DNA of 13,309 bases from UHGV virus genome UHGV-0315017, one strand, 5' to 3'. The notes beneath the pieces were generated by a model that saw only the letters and a program-made list of their open reading frames with translations, did no database searches and was not told where the DNA came from. This DNA comes from a virus. Positions 4,688-13,083 of this stretch are shown one piece after another. How positions within the stretch are numbered: the stretch's first letter is position 1; each line of letters starts with the position of its first letter. Both the position numbers and the translations under genes were made by a program.

Positions 4688-4987
4688 ATGAAACTTAAAT
4701 ATTCTGGCTTAACTGCCAGTGGCAAAACTCGCACTAAATTCATGCGCGGTGATATTTACCGCGACCAGTACGGCGGCACGGTAATGATTAAGGGCGTGGA
4801 GGAACGGCGCATCACCTACCGTCGTGAAGGCTACGAATATGATTGCGTGATGCCTGTTTATCAGTTTCGGCGTGATTTTTCTCTGGTACAGGCAGCGCCC
4901 CGCAGTAAACCAACCAGCAGGGAGAAAGCACGCGCCAATATTCAGGAAATAAAAAAGATGCTTAACGTATTCAGGGGTAAAAAATGA
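4688..4987 (+). CDS. Hypothetical protein (99 aa) immediately upstream of and coupled to the primase gene
   Basis: GGAGAA SD; stop overlaps the primase start (ATGA at 4984-4987). Confidence 0.55.
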   Translation: MKLKYSGLTASGKTRTKFMRGDIYRDQYGGTVMIKGVEERRITYRREGYEYDCVMPVYQFRRDFSLVQAAPRSKPTSREKARANIQEIKKMLNVFRGKK

Positions 4988-6732
4988 AACTGGCACCGAA
5001 CGTAAAAAAACAACCACGCGGAATAAAACACAAAGACACAGAGGTAATTATTTTCGCGGGTAGTGATGCGTGGGCACATGCAAAACAGTGGCAGGAGCAG
5101 GACGGCCCCGCATCCGGCGATAATGTGCCGCCTGTGTGGCTTGGGCCAAATCAGCTTGCCGAACTTGATGCACTGAAAATTGTTCCGGATGGAAAAAAAC
5201 GCGTAAGGCTGTACCAGGCCGGAGAACTGGATTTGGTGGAGACCAAAAAGATTGGTCAGAAGCTGGCGGCGGCAGATATTCAGGACGCAAATTTTTACCA
5301 CGAAGGAATGCACGTCCAGAAGTGTGAAAACTGGCGGCGCTATCTGAATGCTGAGCGTGAAAATATTGCCGCAGGGCTTACCATGCCGGAGCAGAAAAAT
5401 ACGCAACTGGCACAAATGGCAGACAGTGAGCGCGCGCAGCTGCTTGCCGAGCGCTTTGATGGCGTTTGTGTGCATCAGGAAAGTGAAATCGTTCACGTAT
5501 GGCGCGGCGGGGTATGGTGTCCGGTCAGCACAATGGAACTTAGCCGCGAAATGGTGGCGATCTATTCAGAGCACAGGGCCACTTTCAGCAAGCGCGTAAT
5601 CAATAACGCCGTGGAAGCGTTAAAAGTTATTGCCGAACCAATGGGCGAGCCGTCCGGCGATTTGCTGCCGTTCGCCAATGGTGCGCTTGACCTGAAAACG
5701 GGGGAATTTTCCCCGCACACGCCGGAGAACTGGATCACCACGCACAACGGCATTGAGTACACGCCACCAGCACCTGGGGAGAACATCCGCGATAACGCGC
5801 CAAACTTTCATAAATGGCTTAAGCACGCAGCCGGAAAAGACCCGCGCAAGATGATGCGTATATGTGCCGCGCTGTACATGATTATGGCGAACCGGTACGA
5901 CTGGCAGATGTTTATTGAGGCCACCGGAGACGGCGGGAGCGGTAAAAGTACATTCACGCACATAGCCAGCCTTCTGGCAGGGAAACAGAACACGGTAAGC
6001 GCTGAAATGACATCGCTTGATGATGCTGGTGGACGTGCGCAGGTTGTCGGGAGTCGTCTTATCGTCCTGGCTGACCAGCCGAAATATACAGGCGAAGGAA
6101 CGGGCATCAAGAAAATCACGGGCGGTGACCCCGTGGAAATTAACCCGAAATACGAAAAGCGTTTCACGGCTGTAATCAGGGCGGTGGTGCTGGCGACCAA
6201 CAATAACCCGATGATATTCACCGAACGGGCCGGAGGTGTGGCACGTCGTCGCGTGATTTTCCGTTTCGACAATATCGTCAGTGAGGCCGAAAAAGACAGG
6301 GAGCTACCGGAAAAGATCGCGGCTGAAATCCCTGTCATTATCCGCCGATTGCTGGCGAACTTTACCGACCCTGAGAAGGCACGGGCTTTACTACTGGAAC
6401 AGCGTGACGGTGATGAAGCTCTGGCAATAAAGCAACAGACGGATCCGGTTATTGAGTTTTGCCAGTTCCTGAATTTTCTGGAGGAAGCACGCGGCCTGAT
6501 GATGGGCGGCGGTGGCGATTCAGTGAAGTACACGACCAGGAACAGCCTTTACCGCGTCTATCTGGCGTTTATGGCATACGCAGGCAGGAGCAAACCGCTA
6601 AACGTAAATGACTTTGGCAAGGCTATGAAGCCTGCCGCAAAAGTTTACGGACATGAATATATTACGCGGAAAGTTAAGGGGGTAACGCAGACTAACGCAA
6701 TAACAACAGACGAGTGCGACGCGTTTTTATAA
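4984..6732 (+). CDS. Replication initiator: primase / SF3 (D5-like) helicase, P4 alpha-like C-terminal region
   Basis: 582 aa with Walker A GDGGSGKST and downstream helicase-like motifs; size and position match the pri-rep genes of P4-like and PICI elements. Confidence 0.85.
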   Translation: MKLAPNVKKQPRGIKHKDTEVIIFAGSDAWAHAKQWQEQDGPASGDNVPPVWLGPNQLAELDALKIVPDGKKRVRLYQAGELDLVETKKIGQKLAAADIQDANFYHEGMHVQKCENWRRYLNAERENIAAGLTMPEQKNTQLAQMADSERAQLLAERFDGVCVHQESEIVHVWRGGVWCPVSTMELSREMVAIYSEHRATFSKRVINNAVEALKVIAEPMGEPSGDLLPFANGALDLKTGEFSPHTPENWITTHNGIEYTPPAPGENIRDNAPNFHKWLKHAAGKDPRKMMRICAALYMIMANRYDWQMFIEATGDGGSGKSTFTHIASLLAGKQNTVSAEMTSLDDAGGRAQVVGSRLIVLADQPKYTGEGTGIKKITGGDPVEINPKYEKRFTAVIRAVVLATNNNPMIFTERAGGVARRRVIFRFDNIVSEAEKDRELPEKIAAEIPVIIRRLLANFTDPEKARALLLEQRDGDEALAIKQQTDPVIEFCQFLNFLEEARGLMMGGGGDSVKYTTRNSLYRVYLAFMAYAGRSKPLNVNDFGKAMKPAAKVYGHEYITRKVKGVTQTNAITTDECDAFL

Positions 6733-7943: not shown

Positions 7944-9206
7944 ATGGCTGAAGAGAAAAAAGGCGGTGTTTCGGTGTACATAAGCCCCGACATCGTGAAG
8001 GCGCTCAAGGAACGCCACCAGCAGAACGTAAAAGCAGGCATTGCGGCAGGACTTGACCCGCTGGCGATGGTTGAGCCGTCAACAGGCTGGCAGGTACGCG
8101 CCTATTTACGCGCGGCGCTGGGTATGAATCAGGTTCACGGGGGGGGAATAATGACAGTAAAAGCAATGGCACTTAACACTAACCAGCTTTTTGCGTACCT
8201 GAATCGCGAGGATATTGCGGAATTTAAATTCAGTCCGCTGTTTACCACGCTGTTTTTCCCGAACGTGGCGACATTCAGCACGCAAAACATCATGCTGGAT
8301 ACCCTGGACATTGAAGAAGTCACCATGTCGGCGTTTTGTTCGCCTATGGTGGGTAGCCAGGTTCAGCGCGATAAAGGGTACGAAACCAGCACAATCAAAC
8401 CTGGCTACATGAAGCCAAAGCACGAAATCGATCCAACGAAAACCATCATGCGCATGGCTGGAGAAGATCCGGCACAGCTTAACGACCCTACCTATCGCCG
8501 TATGCGCCTGATTACTGGCAATATGCGCCGCCAGATAAACGCCATAAAAGCGCGCGTGGAATGGCTGGCGGTAAATGCGGTAACGACCGGAAAAAACATC
8601 ATTGAGGGCGAAGGCATAGAGCGCTATGAAATCGACTGGAAGATACCGGAAAAAAACATCATAGAGCAGGCCGACGGTAAAAAATGGTCAGAGCAGGACA
8701 AAGAAATCCACGATCCAATCTATGATATCGAACTATACGCCGATCAGGCAGGTTGCCCCGCCAACGTCATGATTATGGGCGCTGAGGTATGGCGAACGTT
8801 ACGCAGCTTTAAAAAATTCCGTGAGCTGTACGATCTTTCCCGTGGTTCAGAGTCCGCCGCAGAGCTGGCATGTAAAAACCTGGGCGAAGTGGTGAGCTTT
8901 AAAGGCTATCTGGGCGATATTGCCCTTATCGTCTATTCCGGCAAATACGCCGACAGTGACGGCAGAGAAAAATATTTCCTTGAGCCTGATTTGCTTGTCC
9001 TGGGCAACACCAACAATAAAGGGCTGGTGGCCTATGGTGCGATTATGGATCAGGACGCAGTAAGAACGGGGGCAACGCAAAACATGTACTACCCGAAAAA
9101 CTGGATTGAGGACGGAGATCCGGCGATTGAGTACGTGCAGACACACAGTGCACCGCAGCCGGTACCGGCAGTTATTCGCAAATTTGTTACCGTCAAAATT
9201 GGTTAA
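7944..9206 (+). CDS. Major capsid protein, lambda gpE-like, with about 70-aa N-terminal extension
   Basis: Long blocks shared with lambda gpE as recalled: KFSPLF..LFF, PGYMKPKHE, EDPAQLNDPTYRRMR, SFKGYLGDIALIVYSGKY, LVLGNT, YPKNW..GDPA. AGAGGA SD before ATG 7944. Confidence 0.88.
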   Translation: MAEEKKGGVSVYISPDIVKALKERHQQNVKAGIAAGLDPLAMVEPSTGWQVRAYLRAALGMNQVHGGGIMTVKAMALNTNQLFAYLNREDIAEFKFSPLFTTLFFPNVATFSTQNIMLDTLDIEEVTMSAFCSPMVGSQVQRDKGYETSTIKPGYMKPKHEIDPTKTIMRMAGEDPAQLNDPTYRRMRLITGNMRRQINAIKARVEWLAVNAVTTGKNIIEGEGIERYEIDWKIPEKNIIEQADGKKWSEQDKEIHDPIYDIELYADQAGCPANVMIMGAEVWRTLRSFKKFRELYDLSRGSESAAELACKNLGEVVSFKGYLGDIALIVYSGKYADSDGREKYFLEPDLLVLGNTNNKGLVAYGAIMDQDAVRTGATQNMYYPKNWIEDGDPAIEYVQTHSAPQPVPAVIRKFVTVKIG

Positions 9207-9217
9207 CGGGGGATTCT

Positions 9218-9553
9218 ATGGACACTCCATACATTGAGTTATTTGCAGGCAGTCAGCAGGTCGCCACGACGCTGGTACATTTTGCCGCTGATGCTGGCTT
9301 TATTCAGGAATTTACCCCGCTGATGCTGGCGGACAATGGCGAGTTTAAGCCGTGGGATGGTAAGGAATCTGGCAAGGCTGTTTATCTGACCTCGTACCCT
9401 GTGGACACGTCAAAGCAGAAATCAGCACAGTGTTACAAGACGGGGATATTCAATATTGCCGCCGTTAACTGGCCTGAGAGCGTCGACACCGATGCGAAAA
9501 AATGCGCCGCCTTTGCGGGTTCCGGCGTATCCGTTCAGCCGCTGGCCCGATAA
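9218..9553 (+). CDS. Head decoration protein, lambda gpD-like
   Basis: 111 aa; TPLML, WDG, YKTGIF, WPE and KK.AAFAG blocks match lambda gpD (110 aa) as recalled; GGGGG SD. Confidence 0.85.
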   Translation: MDTPYIELFAGSQQVATTLVHFAADAGFIQEFTPLMLADNGEFKPWDGKESGKAVYLTSYPVDTSKQKSAQCYKTGIFNIAAVNWPESVDTDAKKCAAFAGSGVSVQPLAR

Positions 9554-9565
9554 GCAGGGGGAACG

Positions 9566-9979
9566 ATGGCAACGAATGAAAGCATCATGACGCTACCGCT
9601 GGCGAGTAAATTTAAAGCCGAAGCGCGGGCAATGGCTGACAGAGGTTTATCAACCTATGAGGCCGTATATCAACTAAACAAACTGGAAGAGCAGGACAAG
9701 CCGCGCGCTGATGCGATTATGGCGCTTCATGAGCATAAAGACTATCAGCCGCTGTTGCGTGCAATGGCAAACGTGCCTTGTATCGATGTTGGTACGGCTA
9801 AAAGCATCCTTAGCATGACCATAGAGCAGGAACGCCAGAAGGTTGCACCAGAGCTTACCGCAGCCTTTGAAAACTTTATGGACATGCACAGCCCGCAAGC
9901 CGTATCAGCTGGCATGGCATACGATGGCAGAAACCAGGGCGATGACGGCGACATCGATCGCATACTGAAAACCATCTGA
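9566..9979 (+). CDS. Hypothetical protein (137 aa) between the decoration gene and cos
   Basis: AGGGGGA SD; acidic C-terminus (QGDDGDIDRILKTI); no family recognised. Confidence 0.6.
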   Translation: MATNESIMTLPLASKFKAEARAMADRGLSTYEAVYQLNKLEEQDKPRADAIMALHEHKDYQPLLRAMANVPCIDVGTAKSILSMTIEQERQKVAPELTAAFENFMDMHSPQAVSAGMAYDGRNQGDDGDIDRILKTI

Positions 9980-9985
9980 GACAAG

Positions 9986-10009
9986 GCCGGAGAAATCCGG
10001 CTTTTTTTT
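9986..10009 (+). terminator. Rho-independent terminator (near-duplicate of the 7715-7736 hairpin)
   Basis: GCCGGA gaaa TCCGGC plus TTTTTTTT. Confidence 0.8.
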
Positions 10010-10010
10010 A

Positions 10011-10086
10011 CGGGTCCTTTCCGGCATATGGACCCGTTACGGGGCGGCGACCTCGCGGTTTTTCGCTATTTATGAGCTTTTTCAGG
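10011..10086 (+). other. Lambda-type cos site X (cosQ-like, cosN, I2-like); cohesive-end 12-mer at 10042-10053
   Basis: ACGGGTCCTTTCCGG...CCGTTACG|GGGCGGCGACCT|CGCGGTTTTTCGCTATTTATGA closely matches the lambda right-end/left-end junction as recalled (…CGGGTCCTTTCCGGTGATCCGACAGGTTACG | GGGCGGCGACCTCGCGGGTTTTCGCTATTTATGAAA). Confidence 0.8.
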
Positions 10087-10186
10087 GGGGTGGTGGTGGT
10101 TTTGTTGTTTGCTCTATCTTTATGAATGAAAAGGGAAAGATGCAAACAATACACCAACCTGAAGCAGTAATTAAGTTGGTGTATTA

Positions 10187-10729
10187 ATGAAATCGCACCT
10201 GATGAACAAAAAAAACATGGCGAAAAGCTGCCGTGTAAGTGCGACAGCGTTCGACAAGTGGGGAGTGACTCCCGTTGAACGTAAAGGCCGTGAGGCGTTT
10301 TACGATGTTGCCAGCGTGATAGACAATAGGGTTAACAATGCAATTAGCCAGCTTACAAACGACAAAGGCGATATTGATGATGATGAACTCTTACGAGTCA
10401 GGATCAGATTACTGACAGCACAGGCGGAGGCGCAGGAACTTAAAAACGAGCGCGATCGCGGTGACGTGATTGATACTGAGTTTTGCCTGTACGCGCTTTC
10501 AAAGCTGGCGAGTCAGATTTCATCAATCATGGACAGCCTCCCGCTTACTATGCAAAGGAGCTTCCCACAGATTACCCCCGCCATGCTGGATAGGCTTAAA
10601 AGGGAAGTGGTTAAAGCCTGTAATGCCAGTGCCAGAGTTGCCGACAACCTCCCACAGATACTGGCTGATTACTTGAAAGAAACAACCGGAAACGTACCGG
10701 AAAAGTTGCTACAGAAGAAAGGCGAGTAA
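10187..10729 (+). CDS. Terminase small subunit, lambda Nu1-like
   Basis: 180 aa (Nu1 is 181); N-terminal HTH region and central block LTAQAEAQELKNERDRGDVIDTEFCLYALSKLASQISSIMDSLPLTMQRSFP align with lambda Nu1 (LTRAQADAQELKNARDSAEVVETAFCTFVLSRIAGEIASILDGLPLSVQRRFP) as recalled. Confidence 0.85.
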   Translation: MKSHLMNKKNMAKSCRVSATAFDKWGVTPVERKGREAFYDVASVIDNRVNNAISQLTNDKGDIDDDELLRVRIRLLTAQAEAQELKNERDRGDVIDTEFCLYALSKLASQISSIMDSLPLTMQRSFPQITPAMLDRLKREVVKACNASARVADNLPQILADYLKETTGNVPEKLLQKKGE

Positions 10730-11927: not shown

Positions 11928-11952
11928 ATTTTAGTTATACGTTTGGTTATAC
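11928..11952 (+). repeat. Arm-type direct repeat TTTTAGTTATACGTTTGGTTATACGG, partner of 604-628
   Basis: 24 of 25 positions identical to the left-end copy. Confidence 0.55.
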
Positions 11953-12129: not shown

Positions 12130-13083
12130 TCAGAACGTCCAGACTACACCCGCCTGAGTTGTGCTGCTTTCTTCACGGGAGAAACGACTATCGATACCGA
12201 GCGTCAGCCCCGTCAATGTTTGCTCAAAGCCAGCGCCTGCATCAGTGGTCACGTCGTTGCGGCTGTTAATTGCCGAACTCCACATCGCCGTATCGTAATT
12301 AACGCCTTTTACGCTACCAAGACGCCCACGCACGGTGTCCAGTTCTGCATCAAATACCAGCGGTTGTGCTGCCGCCATATTCAGCACATCCGTGGTTGAA
12401 GGGGTCATTTGTGCGCGATTCTCTGCGAGACTCCAGCTATGGTTGCCATTATCCAGCAAGGTATATTCATACGTACTGATATCAACAACGCTTCCGGCAT
12501 TGCCCAACGTAAATGCAGCATCACCGCCGCCCGTTGTTACCAGTGTAAGGCTATCTCCTGCTGCCGGGCTGGCACCGGTGTCCGTCACGAATATTTTGAA
12601 ATCACCTGTTGCTTTAACCTCCAGTAGTCCTCCCTTTTCTATAACGGCAAAGACGGCAATCCCATCTTTTTCAACAATTAAGCGCCCGCCTTTAATCGTG
12701 GGATCATTCGCCGCGCCATAAACCTGTAGCACTCCATTATTGATCGTAGTCTGATTTACCGCGCCACCCATTTGAACAATTTGATAACCATCATTTAATA
12801 CTGCGTATTCTGCGGTGCCATTTATTTCAACGTACTGATATCCCCCGTTAATTTCAGTATTACTACTTACACCAAATTCTTATATATGCTGTTCTCCGCC
12901 AGGATTGATTTTCGTATTATTGGCGGTCCAATAAACCAGCTGGATATCTTTTTCCAGGACAACACCATCAACTGGCTCACCATACTCAACAGTTGATGCC
13001 AATGCTATGGGCGAATATAACGCTGTAGCCACCAGAACAGATATTGCGGAACGACAAAGAGAAACAGAACCAGATTGGTGCAT
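12130..13083 (-). pseudogene. Autotransporter/adhesin-like gene interrupted by an in-frame TAA (12880-12882); possibly a yejO-type locus
   Basis: ORFs 12880-13083 (signal-peptide-like N-terminus) and 12130-12771 (Gly/Thr-rich beta-helix-like repeats ending ...VVWTF) are in the same frame, separated by a single TAA. The total length is too short for a complete autotransporter. Confidence 0.5.

Follow-up and report, generated by a model that had tools for sequence, protein, structure and literature searches.

A terS-proximal inverted repeat in an Escherichia coli phage satellite is probably the R2/R1 pair of a lambda-like cosB

Background

The virus genome UHGV-0315017, a stretch of 13,309 nucleotides which is here called the window at its full length, carries an inverted repeat immediately in front of terS, the gene for a small terminase subunit (TerS). 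The window is not a phage but carries a phage satellite of ~11 kb, a phage-inducible chromosomal island (PICI), integrated next to tRNA-Pro in E. coli. A sequence-only reading had interpreted the repeat as a hairpin in the mRNA that could sequester the ribosome-binding region of terS or, equally, as a possible DNA operator. Homology and position now suggest that the repeat is probably the R2/R1 pair of TerS-binding boxes within the cosB of the satellite, that is, within the part of the cohesive-end site (cos) that a small terminase recognises. Positions within cos are given in bp counted from the start of the cohesive end, bp 1 being position 10042 of the window.

In the lambda-like phages cosB is built as R3-I1-R2-R1; R3, which occupies bp 50-65, and R1 point one way and R2 the other (PMC9026076, section 1.3). 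In the record of lambda R2 and R1 form a perfect 16-nt inverted repeat at bp 109-124 and 151-166, and in that of phage 21 the repeat is 11 nt long, lies at bp 112-122 and 150-160 and is annotated as gp1-binding R boxes. R1 of lambda is non-essential and accessory (PMC4669245). A second kind of specificity is that of N15 and Monarch. Experimental mapping put R3 of N15 at bp 48-59/60, and there is an accessory copy in inverted orientation, rR2, at bp 249-260 (PMC4669245); in the N15 record R3 reads GAGGTTGTTGTTT, with the core GGTTGTTGTT, and rR2, when reverse-complemented, reads ATGGTTGTAGTT. N15 itself has a simple cosB, with R3 only plus the remote rR2, whereas the Monarch group combines the N15 recognition helix with a tripartite cosB (PMC4669245).

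Among satellites the closest described islands are the E. coli PICIs of the Rpp type such as EcCICFT073, which are of the same kind as the window and have the same gene order (an E-like capsid gene, a D-like decoration gene, cos and a winged helix-turn-helix (HTH) packaging gene), and which likewise join a phage-like cosQ and cosN to an island-specific cosB (PMC6739421, PMC6092414). Their cosB has been proposed to hold R3 only (PMC9026076, section 2.1). In the Staphylococcus aureus pathogenicity islands (SaPIs) a satellite small terminase with its own DNA specificity pairs with the large terminase of the helper (PMC6092414). Some Gram-negative PICIs carry terS (PMC6092414), although cosB was not dissected in that work. 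R boxes in cosB are therefore a known kind of element, while the cosB of a TerS-encoding E. coli PICI was not found described in the searchable literature, which characterises only the Rpp route for such satellites.

The cos site in front of terS

The repeat is the last part of a cos site in which cosQ, cosN, the I2 box and a box rich in G and T (bp 51-68) precede the left arm (bp 107-117) and the right arm (bp 134-144), and terS comes after. Its features, with the predicted box assignments, are as follows.

9983-10009, plus strand: intrinsic-terminator-like hairpin with a T-run (9 pairs, 5 of them G-C), after the open reading frame (ORF) at 9566-9979 and just upstream of cos
10011-10024, plus strand: cosQ-like box CGGGTCCTTTCCGG, invariant with phage 21 and PhiR5_1
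10040-10055, no strand assigned: cosN, with the 12-nt cohesive-end sequence GGGCGGCGACCT at 10042-10053 (bp 1-12)
10064-10076, plus strand: I2 box CGCTATTTATGAG, kept in phage 21, where the record gives it as the I2 site for integration host factor (IHF), and in all relatives
10092-10110, plus strand: R3-type box with the core GGTGGTGGTT (bp 51-60) followed by TTGTTGTTT, an invariant block in the relatives
10115-10127, minus strand: weak IHF-like site in the I1 position, ATTCATAAAGATA, followed by A-tracts
10148-10159, minus strand: left arm, R2-type box GGTTGGTGTATT (core bp 109-118, arm bp 107-118)
10175-10185, plus strand: right arm, R1-type copy GTTGGTGTATT, a perfect copy of the R2 box in the orientation of R3, overlapping the Shine-Dalgarno (SD)-like GGTG
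10187-10729, plus strand: terS, full-length small terminase of the gpNu1 family with an N15-type winged-HTH domain (Pfam Phage_Nu1, phrog_57)

The sequence-only reading had described two 9-mers, TACACCAAC (10150-10158) and GTTGGTGTA (10175-10183), as exact reverse complements separated by 16 nt, and this is correct. The perfect arms are in fact 11 nt long, AATACACCAAC at 10148-10158 and GTTGGTGTATT at 10175-10185, around the same 16-nt loop, so that the 3' arm, which had been said to end 4 nt before the terS ATG at 10187, ends 1 nt before it. It had also been claimed that there is no strong SD sequence outside the stem, and indeed the sole SD-like element is the GGTG at 10178-10181 within the 3' arm. 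As first described the repeat is not beyond chance, since ~1.7 perfect inverted repeats of 9 nt with a loop of at most 40 nt are expected per shuffled window. For a perfect repeat of 11 nt the expectation falls to 0.115 per window, with at least one in 8.5% of shuffles. A third, degenerate copy that had been missed lies upstream, where 10095-10112 is 78% complementary to 10142-10159; in addition 10081-10092 is 83% complementary to 10152-10163.

The comparison with lambda, 21, phi80 and Gifsy-1 is close in architecture. The order and orientation of the boxes (+, -, +) are the same, they follow an identical cosQ, cosN and I2, R2 and the putative R1 form a perfect inverted repeat and terS follows directly (PMC9026076). 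R3 and R2 lie at bp 51-68 and 107-118 in the window, compared with 50-65 and 109-124 in lambda and 50-65 and 107-122 in phage 21. The 12-nt cohesive end GGGCGGCGACCT is identical to lambda bp 1-12 and to those of phage 21 and PhiR5_1, and the satellite would presumably be cleaved there; for the equivalent of CGGGTCCTTTCCGG upstream, the record of phage 21 has the label R4/terminal cos cleavage box. The similarity to phage 21 and PhiR5_1 ends exactly where cosB starts. Beyond that point the box sequences of the window are unrelated to those of lambda and 21, the loop between R2 and R1 has 16 nt and not 26-27, I1 is weak, R1 overlaps the ribosome-binding region and, unlike the phages, the satellite has no large terminase gene. 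The cosB is also more compact, in that the terS ATG is reached at bp 146, whereas in phage 21 and lambda it is at 189-191, and it is for this reason that the putative R1 falls on the ribosome-binding region of terS.

Two further observations concern this region. Loci L004, L019, L021, L044, L047 and others stand out at bp 7-12 of cosN, positions that differ among lambda-like phages (PMC4669245), and here may track different helper terminases. There is also a 15-nt inverted repeat, 80% complementary, between 10055-10069 (GCGGTTTTTCGCTAT, just right of cosN) and 10217-10231 (ATGGCGAAAAGCTGC, terS codons 11-15), which resembles the remote rR2 of N15 only in lying inside terS; its sequence is unlike the R boxes and it is probably due to chance.

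Kinship of the boxes to those of N15-type phages

Although the architecture is that of lambda, the sequence of the boxes is related to that of N15. The window R3 aligns base for base with the R3 core of the N15 type, GGTTGTTGTT, the distance to cosN being fixed; this core occupies bp 50-59 in N15, bp 51-60 in L194 and bp 52-61 in L213, the alignment of satellite to phage being anchored on the I2 box. L194 and L213 belong to the N15-helix phages, viral contigs that encode relatives of N15 TerS, and are used here as stand-ins for those with a longer cosB. In N15-helix phages GGTTGTTGTT is found at bp 51-61 of the plus strand, and those with longer cosB have an additional, inverted copy of the core, at bp 118-127 in L194 and at bp 109-118 in L213. 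The window has two-mismatch variants of the same core, GGTGGTGGTT at bp 51-60 on the plus strand and GGTTGGTGTA at bp 109-118 on the minus strand. The left arm thus shares the position and orientation of the inverted GGTTGTTGTG of L213; together with its flank, ACACCAACCTGAAG, it corresponds to ACAACAACCTGAGG of L194, and it matches N15 R3 at 10 of 12 positions from AGGTTG onwards. As sequence, position and orientation agree and the DNA-binding domain of TerS is held in common, the left arm is taken to be homologous to the phage R2 box.

Compared with the N15-type R3 (GAGGTTGTTGTT; core GGTTGTTGTT), the satellite boxes GGTGGTGGTT and GGTTGGTGTA have G where the phage has T at the positions that differ, and the recognition helix of the satellite TerS has T in place of Q, from which it follows that the specificity of the satellite may be shifted. 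The shift that is proposed is Q to T in the helix together with GGTTGTTGTT to GGTKGKTGKW in the boxes.

The small terminase

The product of terS, 180 aa, is a member of Pfam Phage_Nu1 (PF07471; 2e-23, 83 bits against a cut-off of 30) and matches phrog_57 at 3e-53. It aligns from end to end with N15 gp1 (46% identity, E = 2e-53), lambda Nu1 (35%) and phage 21 gp1 (33%), and a profile of 55 homologues matches the DNA-binding domain of lambda TerS (6HN7_B at 1e-12, 1J9I at 5e-6). An AlphaFold model (pLDDT 85) has a β-α-α-wing-α arrangement at residues 5-56, made up of β5-7, α8-14, α19-24, a β-hairpin at 31-40 and α41-56. Identity to N15 gp1 rises to 55% over residues 5-64, and the recognition helix reads TAFDKWG as opposed to QAFDKWG in N15, the replacement of Q by T being found in every satellite sequence examined.

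The possibility that the protein is an Rpp was excluded, as no RppC chain in the PDB was matched by sequence or by profile, and as the protein, at 180 aa and with a C-terminal region that aligns to phage TerS, is not of the 135-153 residues of Rpp, a short protein that lacks the part of TerS that binds the large terminase. The end-to-end alignments to phage TerS and the profile match to the lambda domain, with no Rpp chain found, identify a genuine TerS. In this respect the window differs from the Rpp-type islands, having a full-length TerS with a C-terminal region for binding the large terminase (TerL); its cosB differs too, in having the predicted R3, R2 and, in the lineage of the window, R1.

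The C-terminal half of TerS is closest to Nu1 of lambdoid E. coli phages (56% to PhiR5_1). On one contig that holds both a helper prophage and an embedded satellite, cosQ and cosN are common to the two but the cosB boxes and the TerS helices are different, and identity between the two TerS proteins is 52% over the C-terminal half, which binds TerL, as against 31% over the N-terminal half. A 194-aa TerS, P0125, consists of a phage 21/lambda-like N-terminal domain, a long coiled coil and a C-terminal half nearly identical to the satellite type; this natural chimera speaks for an exchange of domains between small terminases of the helper type and those of the satellite type. A division of labour between the halves of TerS is suggested by the helper/satellite pair on one contig, the lambdoid-like C-terminal half and the chimera.

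Conservation across the satellite family

Conservation was examined in a family of 173 loci, 75 of them unique, collected with a locus signature that fixed only the I2 box and GGTGGTGGT and so left both arms unbiased. The mean majority fraction over the unique sequences was 0.97 for cosQ, 0.95 for the left arm and 0.92 for the remainder of R3, compared with 0.76 for the right arm, 0.77 for the loop and 0.73 for the spacer. The perfect repeat is present in only 13 of the 75 unique sequences (43 loci). Elsewhere other right-arm haplotypes, GTGGGGATATT, GTTGTGGTATC, GTTGGGATATT and GTGGGGGTATT, face an unchanged left arm, and in an Enterobacter/Citrobacter-type clade (16 of the 75), whose TerS is ~59% identical with the same N-terminus, the right arm is missing and a normal SD sequence, CAGAGGTgaaaATG, is found. 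The terminator-like hairpin at 9983-10009 is limited to the sub-lineage of the window. The weak IHF-like site, with 3 mismatches to the IHF consensus WATCAANNNNTTR in the window, has 1-2 mismatches in distant relatives and agrees in strand and relative position with the annotated I1 of phage 21. In genome contigs a scan with the TerS protein confirmed no locus and one with the DNA signature gave a single locus, in Kosakonia.

Among 20 distinct E. coli-type sequences there were no compensatory and no wobble changes in the stem. Eight of its 11 pairs vary, solely by unpairing, and 74.5% of cells were paired, equal to the shuffled control. The energy of the hairpin is -3 to -8 kcal/mol in relatives that are 88-93% identical, compared with -14.5 kcal/mol in the window. 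With no covariation, with pairs broken and with the energy reduced, pairing is not the conserved property; the left arm is conserved as a sequence.

Drift of this kind is also seen in phages. In lambda-type relatives the R2/R1 repeat always begins at bp 109, but the part of it that is perfect varies between 17 nt and less than 8 nt, which is the same erosion as in the satellite family. By analogy the drift of the right arm matches the genetics of R1 in lambda.

Interpretation of the repeat

The reading of the repeat as the R2/R1 pair of a satellite cosB, which is considered probable, is based on homology and position, from which binding of TerS to the predicted boxes and use of the TerL of a helper would follow. 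The lambda-like character of the site is seen in a cosN with a 12-nt cohesive end and symmetry around it, a cosQ within the usual ~17-30 bp upstream, an R3 in the expected place (~bp 48-65) and orientation and an inverted R2 where one is expected (~bp 105-125). Following the analogy with lambda, a dimer of TerS winged-HTH domains would dock on R3 and R2, possibly across a bend. The docked TerS would then, through its C-terminal half, recruit and position the large terminase of the helper to nick the shared cosN. The right arm would be a third, R1-type copy in the orientation of R3, accessory at most, as in lambda. As R2 and R1 are inverted copies of each other, a stable hairpin arises in the mRNA of the window lineage; it may lower translation of TerS in that sub-lineage, but selection for its pairing is not supported and it is not the hairpin that selection maintains.

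Several observations weigh against this interpretation. R3 differs from the arms, matching the arm core in the right-arm orientation at 11 of 16 positions at best, and its exact register is ambiguous because of the (GGT)n periodicity. The start-to-start spacing of R2 and R1 is 27 bp in the window but 42 in lambda and 38 in phage 21, and the window has a poor version of the IHF-like I1 site that lies between R3 and R2. No clear R1 was seen in the N15-helix phages examined, in which R3 and R2 were, so that the right arm is without a direct counterpart in those phages. The N15-derived 10-mer is unspecific across the window when up to 2 mismatches are allowed (36 matches with 24 expected), and was applied solely to position and orientation within cosB. 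Lastly, a Foldseek search with the 180-residue model gave as best matches MerR-like winged-HTH domains on DNA, with weak E-values of 0.19-0.9; the top 50 for the whole TerS model, all with E-values above 0.1, contained neither 1J9I nor an Rpp, and the homology of the domain was decided by the profile search and not by Foldseek.

Of the other explanations the one that survives best, although it is unlikely, accepts the left arm as R2 and denies a function in cosB to the right arm. The right arm would then be the ribosome-binding region, a past duplication or gene conversion would account for its identity to the box, and neither TerS binding nor a role of the repeat as a unit would be involved. 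Its conservation at the level of the spacer is what this would predict, and the positions of the right arm that are invariant (the G at stem position 4 and TAT) agree with a G-rich tetramer, similar to an SD, that all E. coli-type haplotypes have 5 nt from the ATG. No clear third copy is seen in those N15-helix phages whose cosB is longer, and the mosaic loci L039 and L161 join a left part of the window type to other right arms. Against this, a perfect 11-nt copy at this very spot is improbable by chance, the right arm is oriented in the same way as R1 in cosB of the lambda, phage 21 and phi80 type (PMC9026076), and 7-8 of the 11 box positions are kept in all E. coli-type haplotypes.

A hairpin selected in the mRNA, which would occlude GGUG, abut the AUG and keep TerS synthesis low or conditional, is improbable. 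What stands of the original proposal is the structure itself, which makes sequestration physically plausible for this one sequence. The stem-loop alone has an energy of -14.5 kcal/mol, its 101-nt context -22.3 kcal/mol with z = -3.9 against 200 shuffles, and, as in translational operators that sequester the ribosome-binding site, the stem holds the only SD-like element and ends next to the start codon. Both arms are probably transcribed, as there is no promoter-like site between the upstream terminator and terS from which a shorter mRNA might start. The part that the comparison does not support is regulation by pairing, for unlike in such operators the pairing is neither conserved nor covarying in the relatives, and the arms are independently explained as DNA boxes. 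The right arm behaves as spacer while the left arm is kept alone, a conservation that homology to phage R2 boxes accounts for, and the distant clade with the same TerS N-terminus does without the 3' arm and has a canonical SD sequence. There was no match to an Rfam family; permissive thresholds returned noise only (19 bits compared with a gathering score of 68). The repeat was also considered as a terminator and rejected, as no T-run follows the stem and a scan gave terminator-like sites only at 9983-10009 and at cosN. Because this candidate riboregulator probably belongs to an ordinary and well understood class of DNA site, it is not one to be pursued as an RNA switch.

A transcriptional operator, on which a dimeric regulator or TerS itself as an autorepressor would control terS transcription, is very unlikely, for although a palindrome adjoining the gene start and a MerR-like winged-HTH fold of the sort used by transcription factors would suit it, no sigma-70-like site was found by a scan of 10010-10186 and hence no such promoter overlaps the repeat, the palindrome is not conserved as a palindrome, the neighbouring ORF 9566-9979 is without a DNA-binding signature and in relatives with an AlpA-like gene at the position of that ORF the repeat is no better. 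The operator suggested by the sequence-only reading was nevertheless sound in looking for a DNA site for a protein; that protein appears to be the small terminase, with recognition of cosB as its role and not control of transcription.

The satellite and its other genes

The genes of the island are those of a PICI: an integrase, a primase/replication module that includes a gene for a single-stranded DNA-binding protein (SSB), genes running in one direction and a partial set of phage late genes that is insufficient for a virion. No large terminase, portal or tail gene is present among the genes of the window. The same gene content has been reported for Gram-negative PICIs (PMC6092414, PMC10111431). 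The features outside cos are as follows.

406-482: tRNA-Pro
673-1932: tyrosine integrase
4984-6732: D5-type primase
7944-9206: gpE-like capsid protein
9218-9553: gpD-like decoration protein
9566-9979: 137-aa ORF of unknown function between the decoration gene and cos (phrog_1999)

An island in E. coli MS 21-1 is 99.8% identical and sits between tRNA-Pro/yejM and yejO. In E. coli Nissle 1917 identity reaches 100% over the cosB/terS part, and the satellite occurs in hundreds of E. coli genomes. An ORF on the minus strand at 12130-12771 has a pertactin domain and is part of yejO, the autotransporter gene next to the island in E. coli. Two direct copies of a 16-nt sequence, TTTTAGTTATACGTTT, are present, one at 603 and one at 11929 (regions 603-650 and 11929-11944), and a cluster of inverted and direct copies of TTTAGTTATACG occupies 603-650, downstream of tRNA-Pro and upstream of the integrase gene. 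These repeats are candidates for marking the ends of the island, as an attachment-site core or as arm sites of the integrase.

The capsid ORF at 7944-9206 is a single frame of 420 aa, with phrog_3255 on residues 1-67 and a major head protein on 69-419. Over the same span E. coli MS 21-1 has two annotated genes of 207 and 1056 nt in different frames with a 1-nt overlap, giving a total of 1262 nt compared with 1263 nt in the window. A 1-nt indel is therefore implied, for which a true fusion, a site of frameshifting and a difference in sequencing are all conceivable. ORF 9566-9979 weakly resembles head-maturation proteases in their C-terminal part, from which its product might be scaffold-like; most relatives have an AlpA-like HTH gene in its position instead.

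In several relatives the satellite lies inside the capsid gene of a lambdoid prophage, an arrangement that has been termed "helper-embedded" (PMC10111431). In loci L013-L018, L021 and L004 a truncated Phage_cap_E gene (the major capsid gene E) is found downstream of terS, followed by FI, FII and Z. Accessory genes, among them those for an abortive-infection family protein, an FRG-domain protein and a DUF3892 protein, lie between terS and the junction in those embedded relatives.

Implications

The principle suggested here, a satellite TerS with its own DNA specificity directing a helper large terminase to satellite DNA, would be that of the SaPIs, although the cutting would be of the cos type, at a site that satellite and helper have in common, in place of headful packaging from a pac site, and the TerS families are unrelated. 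A bolder proposal, offered tentatively and with doubt, is that this is a strategy as yet uncharacterised for cos satellites, in which a complete TerS in place of an Rpp adaptor, with an N15-type DNA-binding module of shifted specificity and a C-terminal half suited to the terminases of lambda-like helpers, would capture the TerL of the helper for a private tripartite cosB beside a shared cosN, and in which, in the sub-lineage of the window, the overlap of R1 with the ribosome-binding site would also link the synthesis of TerS to packaging, by way of either the hairpin or occupancy of the gene start by TerS. The analysis gives concrete coordinates for the predicted R3, R2 and R1 of a TerS-encoding E. 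coli PICI, and the pairs of boxes and helices, N15-type and satellite-type, make up a natural series of variants for how the recognition helices of TerS read R boxes.

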